From the NCBI GenBank assembly GCA_964385185.1, contig CAYLOA010000008.1, positions 1 to 40,891 on the forward strand: a stretch of DNA of 40,891 nt, written 5' to 3'. Origin of the DNA: an uncultured Methanosarcinales archaeon. GTDB taxonomy: Archaea; Nanobdellota; Nanobdellia; Woesearchaeales; CALCXY01. Each line of letters starts with the position of its first letter. Position 1 is the first letter of the stretch. Position numbers: made by a program. Positions 35,701 through 38,700 of this stretch are shown here, piece after piece.

Positions 35701-38700
35701 AACCTTTTGTAGTAATCTCGCCCATAACCATAATTAATCCTCTTGTAGTAGCTGTTTCGCATGCTACTCGAGAATCTGGATCTTGTCGTAATAGTTCATC
35801 TAAGATAGCATCACTAACTTGATCACATACTTTATCTGGATGACCCTCTGTTACTGATTCTGATGTAAAAAACTCAATTTTTGTCATGTTATCACCTTTG
35901 TTTTTTAATTCAAATTATTCCTTATAAGTTTGTTGGTTTTCTAGTATATACACCTGTAGCTGTTGGATATATCTTAACTAATTTGTCAATTGCTCGATCC
36001 ACATGAAATTTATAGGTACTATTCTTTGCATTATACCTTTCTTGTTGACTCTCAATAGCTATATCTGCCACCATATCTATAGGATGTTGTTTTGTAAATC
36101 CCATTGTCTTAGGTCTAATTTCTACACCATGTTCTTTAACGAGAAAATTTGCAATTGCATGAAACTCAGTTAAAGGATCACTCCGAGCGATTCTTGCTTC
36201 TCTTGAATCTACCCAACTTGCTCCTACATGTCTTAATTGATCTAAAGCAGAATCAACAGATTTTGCATATAATCCTTTTTGATCATACAATTCTTGATGA
36301 TCATGAATTGCTTTTTGTGCAACCTGATCACAAATGTGTTGTTTTGTTGCCGTATCAAGTTTAGGTAGTATATCAATACCAAATTCATGAACAATATATT
36401 TTGCAGTTTCATGAAATTCCTCTAAAGGTTCATTTAATGTAATTCTTGCCTCACGATCAGCAACTAATCGTTGTCTCCGTTCAGTTGAATAACTTGTATC
36501 CTTTTTTGTAGTATATCCAGATTGTAAAACCATTAATATCACCAACCTCTAGACTTAATACACCATTTAAATACCCTCTTGACTAAATTATTCGTATAGG
36601 AATATTGCTATACTCAGAACCTTTAAATAACAGATTAAAGATAACTCAATCATGTGTGGAATACTAGGAATATATGGCCCAAAGGCAACAGAAGCTACTA
36701 TAAAAAAAGGGATTGATTGTCTAAAACCAAGAGGGAAAGATAATCAAGACTTCATTAAAGTAAAGAAAGGAATCATAGGACACACTCTACATTCTATAGT
36801 CCACTTTGTAAAACAACCCTTTGTAAATGAAGGAGTCTTTGTGGGAAACACAGAAATCTATAACTGGCAAGCATTAGCACAAAAACATAATCTCGAAGTA
36901 CAAAATGACTCAGATTTAATCTTCCAACTCCTAGAATCAGGTTTACCTATAAAATTAGTAACTAATCTCCTAGATGGTGTCTATGCATTTGCCTACCAAA
37001 GAGAGGATACTGTGTATTTAGCAAGAGATCTTATCGGAGTAAAACCACTCTGGTATTCTGAAAAGCCATTCGCATTTGCTTCAGAGAGAAAAGCCCTGGA
37101 AAAAATGGGCTTTTCAAGCAAAGAATTGAATCCAAGACAAATCTTAGAATATAATATCAAAACTAAAAAAATTAAACTCACTAAAAGAGCATTTTTTACC
37201 ACAACACCTGAACATACACAGTCAGATATCCAGAAAAAGACTCAAGAATTATTAACAAAAGCAGTCTGGAAACGATTACCTGAAAAGAAATTTGGTTTAT
37301 TATTTTCTGGTGGTGTAGACAGTTCAGTCTTAGCACAATTACTCAAAGCGTTTAAAGTTCCTTTCACATGTTATACAGTTGTTGTAGATCATCCCAGCTT
37401 TCAAGAGCCGTATGATTTAGAGGCAGCGACAACAACAGCTAAAGCATTAGGATTAGATCTTAAAGTGATTAAAATAACAGCAAAAGATATTGAAAAAATG
37501 CTCCCTATTGTTATTCCTCTTATTGAAGATAACAATGTCCAAAAAGTTTCGGTAGCTTTAACTTTTTTCAAAGCAATTGAACAGGCAGCAAAAGATGGCT
37601 GTAAAGTGATGTTTTCTGGATTAGGTGCTGAAGAACTCTTTGCAGGGTATAAACGTCATAAGAATTCTTTACAATTAAACAAAGAATGTCTATCTGGCTT
37701 TAGAAAACTCTACGAACGAGATTTGTATAGAGATGATGTAATAACGATGTATCACTCAGTAGAATTACGATTACCCTTCTTAGATAAAAAATTAATCAAG
37801 TATAGCCTAAAAATTCCTCCTGAGTATAAAATAAAAGGAGAAAAAGATAAATTAGTATTAAGAAAAATTGCTGAAGAGATGGGAATACCCAAAGAGACAG
37901 CCTATCGTAAAAAAAGAGCTGCACAGTATGGTTCTAATGTACAAAAAGCACTTAAGAAGTTAGCAACGAACTTTGAAAGTGTTTCCGCCTATGTAGATAC
38001 CTTTAGTCAAAGAAAAAATCCTAAGTTAGGAGCTTTGTTGTCAACAGGTAAAGACTCTGTCTTTGCTTTGTATAGTATGCAAATACAAAATTATCCTATT
38101 GAATGTGTGATTACCTTAAAGAGTAATAATCCTGATAGTTATATGTTTCATACTCCTACTATTGATTTAGCTAAACAACAAGCAAAATCAATGAAGATTC
38201 CTTTAATAGAACAAGAAACAAAAGGAGTTAAAGAGAAAGAATTGGCTGATCTTCGTAAGGCTTTACAGAAGGCTAAAGAGAAATATGGCATTGAAGGGGT
38301 TGTTACCGGTGCAATTCGTTCTAACTATCAAAGAGATAGAATAGAAAAGGTGTGTGATAGTTTATCTTTGAAAATCTTTGCTCCTTTATGGCACATAGAT
38401 CAAGAGATGTATATGAGAAATGTGCTAAATAAAGGCTTTAAGTTTATCATGACTAAAGTTGCAGCTGAAGGCTTAGATAAAAGCTGGCTTGGAAGAGAGA
38501 TTACAAATAAGGATATAGATAAGTTAGTTAAAATCCATAATAAGAATCAGATTAATATTGCTGGAGAAGGCGGAGAGTTCGAAACATTGATGGTGGATGG
38601 TCCTATATTTAGTGATAAGATTGATGTTAAAGTAAAAGATATTGAAGAAGAGGGATTAGCTGCTGAAGTAGTTCTTAAATAAATTCCGGAACAACAAGAT

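Follow-up and report, generated by a model that had tools for sequence, protein, structure and literature searches.

In archaea and eukaryotes, diphthamide on EF-2 maintains the reading frame; it is also what diphtheria toxin targets. To our knowledge, the last step of its synthesis has not been reconstituted with an archaeal enzyme to date. The archaeal dph6 assignment awaited experimental confirmation as of 2021, according to an excerpt of PMC8305020. A protein fusion of GAT-II, Asn_Synthase, and DUF71 domains was described by de Crécy-Lagard et al. (2012, Biol Direct 7:32; PMC3541065), and the sections of that paper available to us propose glutamine as its NH3 source. As described there, the fusions are three proteins, including that of Nanosalinarum sp. 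J07AB56, in the order GAT-II, Asn_Synthase_B_C PP-loop, and DUF71/Dph6 (hereafter G, S, and D), and by this description the order agrees with that of the gene analyzed here. The same sections draw an analogy with eukaryotic (yeast) Dph6, whose C-terminal RidA-like domains may release NH3. The other related enzymes are E. coli AsnB (1ct9) and human asparagine synthetase (ASNS; 6gq3), in which an N-terminal Cys glutaminase is likewise followed by a PP-loop synthetase. Our search of the literature from 2013 on found no paper on Dph6 together with a glutamine amidotransferase in archaea. The fusion and the ammonia-supply hypothesis are already published, and the present gene adds nothing new to either. 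New here are the setting apart of G-S from ASNS, the distinction of the S, G-S, S-D, and G-S-D forms, the genetic linkage of S and D, and the independence of D from S. This comparative picture sharpens a question open since 2012, namely what S adenylates and which site uses the glutamine nitrogen.

The window, a stretch of 40,891 nucleotides, contains a G-S-D gene whose 676-aa product begins MCGILG (Table 1). Unlike the 2012 examples, it comes from a small-genome Nanoarchaeota/Woesearchaeota-type archaeon, and in such archaea G-S-D is very common. Pfam matches were obtained for Diphthami_syn_2 at residues 459–667 (1.4e-65; 221 bits for PF01902 against a cut-off of 23.2), Asn_synthase at 197–340 plus a second stretch (1.9e-47), GATase_7 at 54–150 (3.1e-15), and GATase_6 at 37–145 (5.2e-12). 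Pfam and NCBIfam matches agreed on three domains in one ORF, as the preliminary description had it, and both motifs named there, SGGVDS (219–224) and STGKDS (464–469), were found in the sequence. The gene is predicted to encode one polypeptide with two separate PP-loop (ATP) carboxylate-adenylating sites and one glutaminase. At the S-D junction, the C-terminal tail of stand-alone S passes into the N-terminus of D without an added linker domain; the consensus end of stand-alone S is ...DYLxSL and the fused consensus is ...SEYLRxFYPxHNxKLGAL. PF28410 also appears in the precomputed annotations of all fused forms, and the sole PHROGs match was phrog_16728, a family without an assigned function.

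Table 1. Positions of the G-S-D gene, its modules, and its key residues in the window.
Feature	Residues	Position	Strand	Remarks
Whole G-S-D gene	676 codons and a stop codon	36652..38682	+	ORF and Pfam/NCBIfam profiles
G module	1–~175	36652..37176	+	Predicted short class-II Ntn glutamine amidotransferase
Conserved residues of G	Cys2, Arg27, Asp30, Asn66, Glu68, Asp86	36655-36657 (Cys2)	+	
Leu in G	Leu46	36787-36789	+	Site of the glutamine-contacting Arg in ASNS
S module	~195–445	37234..37986	+	Short AsnB-like PP-loop synthetase
PP-loop SGGVDS of S	219–224	37306-37323	+	
Leu in S	Leu324	37621-37623	+	Site of the catalytic Glu in ASNS
Retained residues of S	Asp357, Arg360, Lys421			
S-D junction	~446–457	37987..38022	+	Short and conserved; consensus sequences
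D module	458–676	38023..38679	+	Dph6 (diphthine--ammonia ligase), by family membership
PP-loop STGKDS of D	464–469	38041-38058	+	
EGGEFE of D	639–644	38566-38583	+	

A database search, in which 8000 candidates were scored, returned 2502 proteins at E<=1e-3. The 120 relatives listed (52–99% identity, 669–740 aa) are Woesearchaeota/Nanoarchaeota proteins named "diphthine--ammonia ligase," "asparagine synthase," or "ATP-binding protein," and every one carries PF00733, PF01902, PF13522, and PF13537. Conservation of the three domains in these archaea was therefore confirmed, and the domain set given earlier for the relatives held; their earlier total was 1736. From a contig scan with the S alignment, the 80 best-scoring loci were kept; all are G-S-D genes in MAGs labelled Woesearchaeota/Nanoarchaeota. 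The fused ORF was intact in 79 of these 80 independent assemblies, and the remaining one ends at a contig edge, indicating that the fusion is not an assembly artefact.

The D module scored 276.1 bits with NCBIfam TIGR03679 (Dph6_archaeal), against a curated equivalog cut-off of 197.3, and its residues 460–675 matched PH1257 (2d13, 1.9e-50) and PF0828 (3rjz, 1.2e-49) in the PDB. Stand-alone archaeal Dph6 (PH1257, PF0828, TIGR03679) resembles D in this end-to-end alignment, in its PP-loop, and in EGGEFE. However, it lacks the 457-residue N-terminal G-S extension, and its PP-loop reads SGGKDS, whereas the second residue is Thr here. Archaeal and eukaryotic Dph6 orthologues conserve nine residues of PF0828, as stated in an excerpt of PMC3541065, and a phmmer alignment with 3rjz showed all nine to be identical in D (S44, Y45, E78, Y103, Q104, A149, E183, E186, and E188, corresponding to S496, Y497, E530, Y559, Q560, A605, E639, E642, and E644, respectively). 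Across 67 aligned G-S-D proteins, S464, G466, K467, D468, E639, G640, G641, E642, and E644 are invariant. Judged from sequence, the D module is Dph6. Its own genome (1.30 Mb, 85 contigs, completeness 100) contains a single PF01902 match, the G-S-D gene, and one match over the cut-off each for Dph2, Dph5, and aEF-2, the last with the target His motif HEDAIHRG at 601–608; D is the only Dph6 of this genome, and Dph2 and Dph5 are present, as had been reported. By its family membership, D would adenylate the diphthine carboxylate on aEF-2 and amidate it to diphthamide.

The nucleophile Cys of the G module directly follows Met, and an MC start was found in 118 of 121 family members, with MCGI behind a 2-residue extension in two more. 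In human ASNS, the glutamine-binding and oxyanion network comprises Arg-48, Asn-74, Gly-75, and Glu-76 as well as Asp-96 (excerpt of PMC6748925). Compared with this network, G retains Asn66, Glu68, and Asp86, whereas an invariant Leu46 replaces Arg, and Thr67, which is Cys in most relatives, replaces Gly. The module had been called a complete class-II glutaminase; the Cys2 following Met bears this out, but the loss of the glutamine-contacting Arg does not, and glutaminase activity is therefore predicted from the conserved Cys2, Asn66, and Asp86. K131 and H47, for instance, are invariant in the family and might stand in for this Arg in the glutamine pocket. Most likely, G would hydrolyze glutamine with Cys2 and, in the manner of AsnB, deliver the NH3 to its own S site. 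The architectures found were S, G-S, S-D, and G-S-D, and G-D was never found; the direct partner of G is in every case S, the arrangement shared by all AsnB-family enzymes, and in no case D.

G-S has many active-site residues in common with AsnB and ASNS. However, it scored below the cut-offs of both TIGR01536 (253.2 against 267.1) and PRK09431 (218.3 against 499), its G domain is shorter, and the profile match covered positions 1–471 of 554, the C-terminal ~100 residues of AsnB being absent. Furthermore, the Arg-49/48 of AsnB/ASNS is Leu46, Gly75 is Thr (Cys in most relatives), and Glu-348/364 is Leu324, which aligns with human Glu-364 and E. coli E348. At E<=1e-30, 1191 representative clusters make up the S family; of the best 150 of these, 135 have a hydrophobic residue at the Leu324 position (L 125, I 6, M 2, V 2). 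The PP-loop (S219-G-G-x-D-S224), D357, R360, and K421 are invariant in the 67 aligned G-S-D proteins and also in 20 stand-alone S sequences. K421 is the counterpart of E. coli K449 and human Lys-466, a Lys essential for activity in AS-B, as stated in the available part of PMC6748925. From these invariant residues S is predicted to be an active adenylating enzyme, in which a carboxylate substrate would be adenylated and then amidated with NH3 from G. The AsnB-type PP-loop named in the preliminary description was retained, but an asparagine synthetase was contradicted by the TIGR01536 score and Leu324. On these profile and residue comparisons, G-S is not an asparagine synthetase; it falls within a large group of archaeal amidoligases that are short and AsnB-like, with Leu in place of the Glu needed by ASNS and Leu in place of the glutamine-contacting Arg as their signature. 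To the same S family belong short proteins of archaea annotated as "asparagine synthase C-terminal domain-containing," which show 36–49% identity to residues 190–445 and the same SGLGsEE and AAQYGS motifs; these occur as stand-alone S (254–370 aa) or G-S (334–554 aa), lack the Dph6 fusion, and have no curated family. An ASNSD1-like identity of S was not confirmed: no eukaryotic cluster was among the nearest Atlas clusters, and the matches listed in a literature search included no paper on the function of ASNSD1 or YML096W.

The forms of S and D were classified by hand in a census of 101 genomes. G-S-D was intact in 35 genomes and broken or split in three more, an S-D fusion without G was present in five, S and D were separate genes in 36, and a D gene occurred without any S in 13. 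Where separate, S and D were adjacent in three of the 36 genomes (gaps of 19, 35, and 47 bp). On an S-domain tree, the presence of D takes 8 changes in 71 rows and 12 in 257 rows. A single clade of all D-bearing rows was rejected by the AU test (delta lnL 127, p = 0.00017) for a group chosen after tree inspection, and the trees do not separate fusion from fission. S and D are genetically linked, through repeated fusion or splitting and sometimes as adjacent genes. Since they are repeatedly fused or split and are sometimes neighbours, we take them to be functionally linked as well. In family f87, all 14 Dph6-bearing genomes have a stand-alone D, and none of the 14 has a member of the S family, four giving only weak matches in 466–637-aa frames. 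S as an obligate partner of Dph6 is refuted by this family and by the 13 census genomes with D alone. Similarly, genome G064 has only D, whereas G012 and G098 of the same genus have G-S-D, which indicates that the S-D link is not obligate. S would thus be an accessory to D and not a requirement. Among 14 genomes without PF01902, five that also lack Dph2 have no S; all five belong to f87, which is without S anyway, so this co-loss carries no weight.

Taken together, we consider it reasonably probable that D is Dph6, that G-S is an amidoligase other than ASNS with G feeding S, and that S is linked to D as an accessory. In the main competing view, the NH3 that Cys2 releases from glutamine is channelled through or past S and reaches the Dph6 site without leaving the protein, with S perhaps as a second NH3 consumer. 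If so, the last diphthamide step would be glutamine-dependent in these archaea, which is what the preliminary description had predicted. The frequency of G-S-D in the census, in the best 80 loci, and in all 120 listed relatives is consistent with this view, as are the short, conserved junction and the nearly constant Cys2, and the available text of PMC3541065 suggests the same with its eukaryotic Dph6-RidA-like parallel. However, G is found only on S and never on D without S, five genomes have S-D without G, G-S occurs by itself, and stand-alone D is common, many relatives having a D that works by itself; the comparisons lead elsewhere than to a glutamine-dependent last step. Furthermore, S retains a full adenylation site, so that G has a cognate consumer. 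In the part of PMC3541065 available, a 2012 reviewer objected to the channelling idea likewise. Glutamine-fed diphthamide synthesis is therefore possible, and we hold channelling to D to be rather doubtful.

We find it very improbable that G-S is a working, divergent glutamine-dependent asparagine synthetase whose fusion to Dph6 is mechanistically meaningless. Its best named matches are indeed AsnB/ASNS, it keeps counterparts of E. coli AsnB D384, R387, K429, K449, E352, and Y357, and in three genomes (G004, G023, and G152) S was the only AsnB-type gene found with the query used. Nevertheless, Leu replaces the catalytic Glu family-wide, and the human variants E364A and E364Q are inactive (excerpt of PMC6748925); the low TIGR01536 score and the missing C-terminal residues point the same way. 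The genome under study (G000) already has two canonical AsnB paralogues, both with the Glu and the Arg. S occurs together with GatB over the cut-off and no AsnRS over the cut-off in G000, G004, and G152, whereas G064 has AsnRS without S, and repeated S-D fusion and adjacency would be unexpected of unrelated functions. The loss of this Glu and the dispensability of S in many relatives could also mean that S is catalytically dead and serves only as a scaffold to dimerise or position D, or only to hold an ammonia tunnel. We give this hardly any credence, for the adenylation residues are invariant in fused and stand-alone sequences alike, and S occurs most often by itself (in 94 of the best 150 representatives and in 36 of the 101 census genomes), which indicates a role for S that needs neither G nor a physical tie to D. 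The middle domain is no decayed asparagine synthetase but a member of a large, as yet uncharacterised family of archaeal enzymes whose adenylation site is intact, and it is linked genetically to Dph6, which can nevertheless do without it.

As for the substrate of the amidoligase favoured here, it is conceivable, if unlikely, that the archaeal translation apparatus has in the S family a missing amidoligase, one that works beside Dph6 and amidates a second carboxylate. That carboxylate might belong to aEF-2 or to another translation factor; our own speculation adds a tRNA nucleoside, for example cm5U. The feature-based leads place the Leu-for-Glu S family in several archaeal phyla. If this were true, G would make the S reaction glutamine-dependent where present, and the repeated S-D fusions would be the sign of an "amidation module" with two sites that serves the translation machinery. 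For cm5U-to-ncm5U conversion, Elp3 was observed in all five S-bearing and all 14 S-less genomes and is hence uninformative, and our literature search found no paper joining ncm5U with asparagine synthetase. The gene neighbourhoods of G-S-D at the 80 loci gave no substrate clue for S. Recurrent neighbours there, with gene names that reflect our reading of the sequences and not profile assignments, were a cytidylyltransferase-like small gene (19 loci), a DRG-type GTPase (15), a membrane protein (15), prefoldin beta (9), and CTP synthase (7).

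The preliminary description had reported a protein joining a class-II glutaminase (G), an AsnB-type PP-loop synthetase (S) and Dph6 (D), and this three-domain ORF was borne out by Pfam and NCBIfam domains, by its relatives and by related loci. The C-terminal part scored 276 bits against the NCBIfam Dph6_archaeal equivalog (cut-off 197); the N-terminal part scored 253.2 for TIGR01536 and 218 for PRK09431, below the cut-offs of 267.1 and 499. In a PDB sequence search, the stand-alone Dph6 proteins PH1257 and PF0828 matched residues 460-675 (~1e-50), human ASNS residues 195-428 and E. 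coli AsnB residues 6-425. All 120 relatives listed, of 2502 with E≤1e-3, have the G-S-D architecture, and the ORF is intact in 79 of the 80 best related loci from independent assemblies, the remaining one ending at a contig edge. The fusion ORF is real.

Features in the window, in other contigs (C) of its genome (G000), and in related genomes and loci
Feature	Location	Strand	Details
G-S-D fusion ORF	36652-38682	+	676 aa, N-terminus MCGILG
G module	residues 1-~175	+	GATase_6 37-145, GATase_7 54-150 (Pfam)
S module	residues ~195-445	+	Asn_synthase 197-340 and second stretch (Pfam)
D module	residues 458-676	+	Diphthami_syn_2 459-667, E = 1.4e-65 (Pfam)
DNA gyrase B	5337-8696	-	1119 aa; Intein_splicing at residues 502-918
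G6PD	15265-16593	-	
6-Phosphogluconolactonase-like	16610-17305	-	
6PGD-type NAD-binding protein	17447-18337	+	
SAM synthetase	34733-35884	-	S-AdoMet_synt N/M/C domains, all three
Unannotated ORF	35922-36542	-	206 aa, no Pfam match
AspRS/AsnRS-like gene	C15:20421-22061		
GatB	C15:24712-26076		
Canonical AsnB paralogue	C23:10826-12010		
Canonical AsnB paralogue	C25:865-1833		
Extra stand-alone S	G088:C5:41124-41783		genome also has G-S-D
Extra stand-alone S	G028:C32:2006-2713		genome also has G-S-D
Second Dph6-like ORF	L035:4731-5339	+	203 aa, 121 bits to D profile

The observation is correct, and the fusion is a known, common enzyme type. It was described in 2012 by De Crécy-Lagard et al. for Methanohalophilus mahii, Methanosalsum zhilinae and 'Ca. 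Nanosalinarum' (PMC3541065), where a reviewer asks to which of the PP-loop domains the NH3 goes and which reaction is catalysed by the AsnB-like one. We found no paper from 2013 on treating Dph6 together with glutamine amidotransferase in archaea. The remaining interest lies in the S family.

By all sequence criteria tested, D appears to be a bona fide Dph6. The nine PF0828 residues listed as conserved in Dph6 orthologues (PMC3541065) are all identical in the PDB-search alignment (S496, Y497, E530, Y559, Q560, A605, E639, E642 and E644), and the PP-loop and EGGExE are invariant across 67 aligned relatives. In the window's genome (1.30 Mb, 85 contigs, completeness 100), the fusion gene gave the single PF01902 match, confirming it as the sole Dph6; Dph2 and Dph5, also reported before, gave one match each over the cut-off, as did aEF-2, with HEDAIHRG at 601-608. 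Archaeal dph6 was still awaiting experimental confirmation in a 2021 review (PMC8305020). Separately, in six related genomes (G157, G263, G305, G325, G107 and G312), the Dph2 (PF01866) match falls into two pieces (profile ~1-59/117 and ~60-288), often on separate contigs or with stops between, suggesting that dph2 is split in some members of the phylum.

G-S was aligned with E. coli AsnB and with the two AsnB paralogues of the window's genome, all three of them canonical enzymes. The position of E. coli E348 (human Glu-364) is Leu in S of every architecture, except Thr in two S-D forms; that of R49 (human Arg-48) is Leu, and that of G75 is Cys or Thr, in the family's G domains. According to PMC6748925, the ASNS variants E364A and E364Q are inactive, Arg-48 is positioned for glutamine contact and E. 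coli K449 is essential. Otherwise the S site is conserved, with the PP-loop, D357 and R360 (matching E. coli D384 and R387) and K421 (matching E. coli K449) all present. Searching the S profile against 1.84 billion representatives at E≤1e-30 gave 1191 clusters; the best 150 have at the Glu position L (125), I (6), M (2), V (2) or another residue (3), with 12 unmatched by the pattern. By these residues and the scores below the cut-offs, the G-S module is very unlikely to be an asparagine synthetase.

GatB was over the cut-off in the window's genome and AsnRS had no match over it, so free Asn would not be needed there for tRNA charging. GatB, ~2.7 kb downstream of the AspRS/AsnRS-like gene, fits with it a tRNA-dependent route to Asn-tRNA; the two canonical AsnB paralogues are kept regardless. 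S presence does not track AsnRS: S occurs without it in G000, G004 and G152 and with it in G023, and AsnRS occurs without S in G064.

Among 101 genomes sampled evenly from the phylum (G000-G100) and hand-classified at E≤1e-25 to the query protein P0001, intact G-S-D was found in 35, broken or split G-S-D in 3 (G015, G024, G014), S-D in 5, G-S with D elsewhere in 2, S and D as separate genes in 36 and D only in 12. Seven had S with solely the divergent D seen in the Dph6 survey, and one had neither at this threshold, with a divergent D found in that survey. The tallies of the Dph6 survey take in six unpublished genomes (G242, G395, G321, G359, G332, G243), none of them in the census or needed for any conclusion. 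Dph6 genes of intermediate length are S-D fusions without G; genomes with stand-alone D also have stand-alone S of 291-306 aa, distant from D; and in one genome G-S stands alone, as a protein of 490 aa. The best 150 S-family representatives comprise S alone (94), G-S (34), G-S-D (21) and S-D (1), with no other recurrent fusion partner among them. Feature-based look-alikes point, as leads only, to the occurrence of short S and G-S proteins across several archaeal phyla and in some phages. In locus L035, the weaker Dph6-like ORF directly follows G-S-D. The family representative P0335 (1005 aa) has a 332-residue extension ahead of G-S-D; because a class-II glutaminase requires its Cys at the N-terminus, this probably reflects a wrongly called start or two genes read as one.

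When the S-domain tree is rooted on canonical AsnBs, the rows with D are dispersed across it. D presence takes 12 changes on a 257-row FastTree and 8 on a 71-row IQ-TREE, where the well-supported branches by themselves require at least 4 changes of the S-D label. The AU test rejected placing all 37 D-bearing rows in one group, a group named after the tree was seen (delta lnL 127, p = 0.00017). The two modules have thus fused or come apart on several occasions, the usual mark of a functional tie. S and D adjoin in 3 of the 36 separate-gene genomes, in the same direction (G073, gap 19 bp) or divergently (G018, 35 bp; G052, 47 bp). G024 has a G gene of 157 aa whose end overlap with the S-D gene is 11 nt, pointing to either a split or a frameshift.

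D can do without S. The S family is absent from all 14 Dph6-bearing genomes of family f87, D occurs without S in 13 of the 101 sampled genomes, and G064 has D only while G012 and G098 of the same genus have G-S-D. Since S most often stands alone, fused to neither G nor D, it would have a job of its own and be able to use free ammonia or another nucleophile.

By sequence, the fusion protein carries two intact PP-loop adenylation sites and one Ntn-type Cys2 domain. We propose that G would release NH3 for S, its ancestral partner; S would amidate a carboxylate other than aspartate; and D would adenylate, then amidate, diphthine on aEF-2. The preliminary description had instead made the last diphthamide step glutamine-dependent, with NH3 made and channelled in cis, which is an already published hypothesis. 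That NH3 from G reaches D, so that glutamine feeds diphthamide synthesis, seems doubtful to us: the comparative data weaken this reading rather than strengthen it. No G-D form was found among the best 150 S-family representatives or in the architectures surveyed.

The SAM synthetase, which we take to be of the bacterial/eukaryotic rather than the archaeal MAT type, is encoded on the opposite strand, ~770 bp upstream of the fusion gene; Dph2 and Dph5 both use SAM as their donor. In 80 related loci, the recurrent neighbours of G-S-D did not include a SAM synthetase. The 206-aa ORF between the two genes looks by eye as if a ~70-aa unit (…EARI…PL.EFH…H…I.PK…TKQH…) had been duplicated in tandem. 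Elsewhere in the window, gyrase B is interrupted by an intein between its DNA_gyraseB and Toprim domains, and this small-genome archaeon has a cluster of oxidative pentose-phosphate genes (15265-18337), a pathway unusual in archaea.
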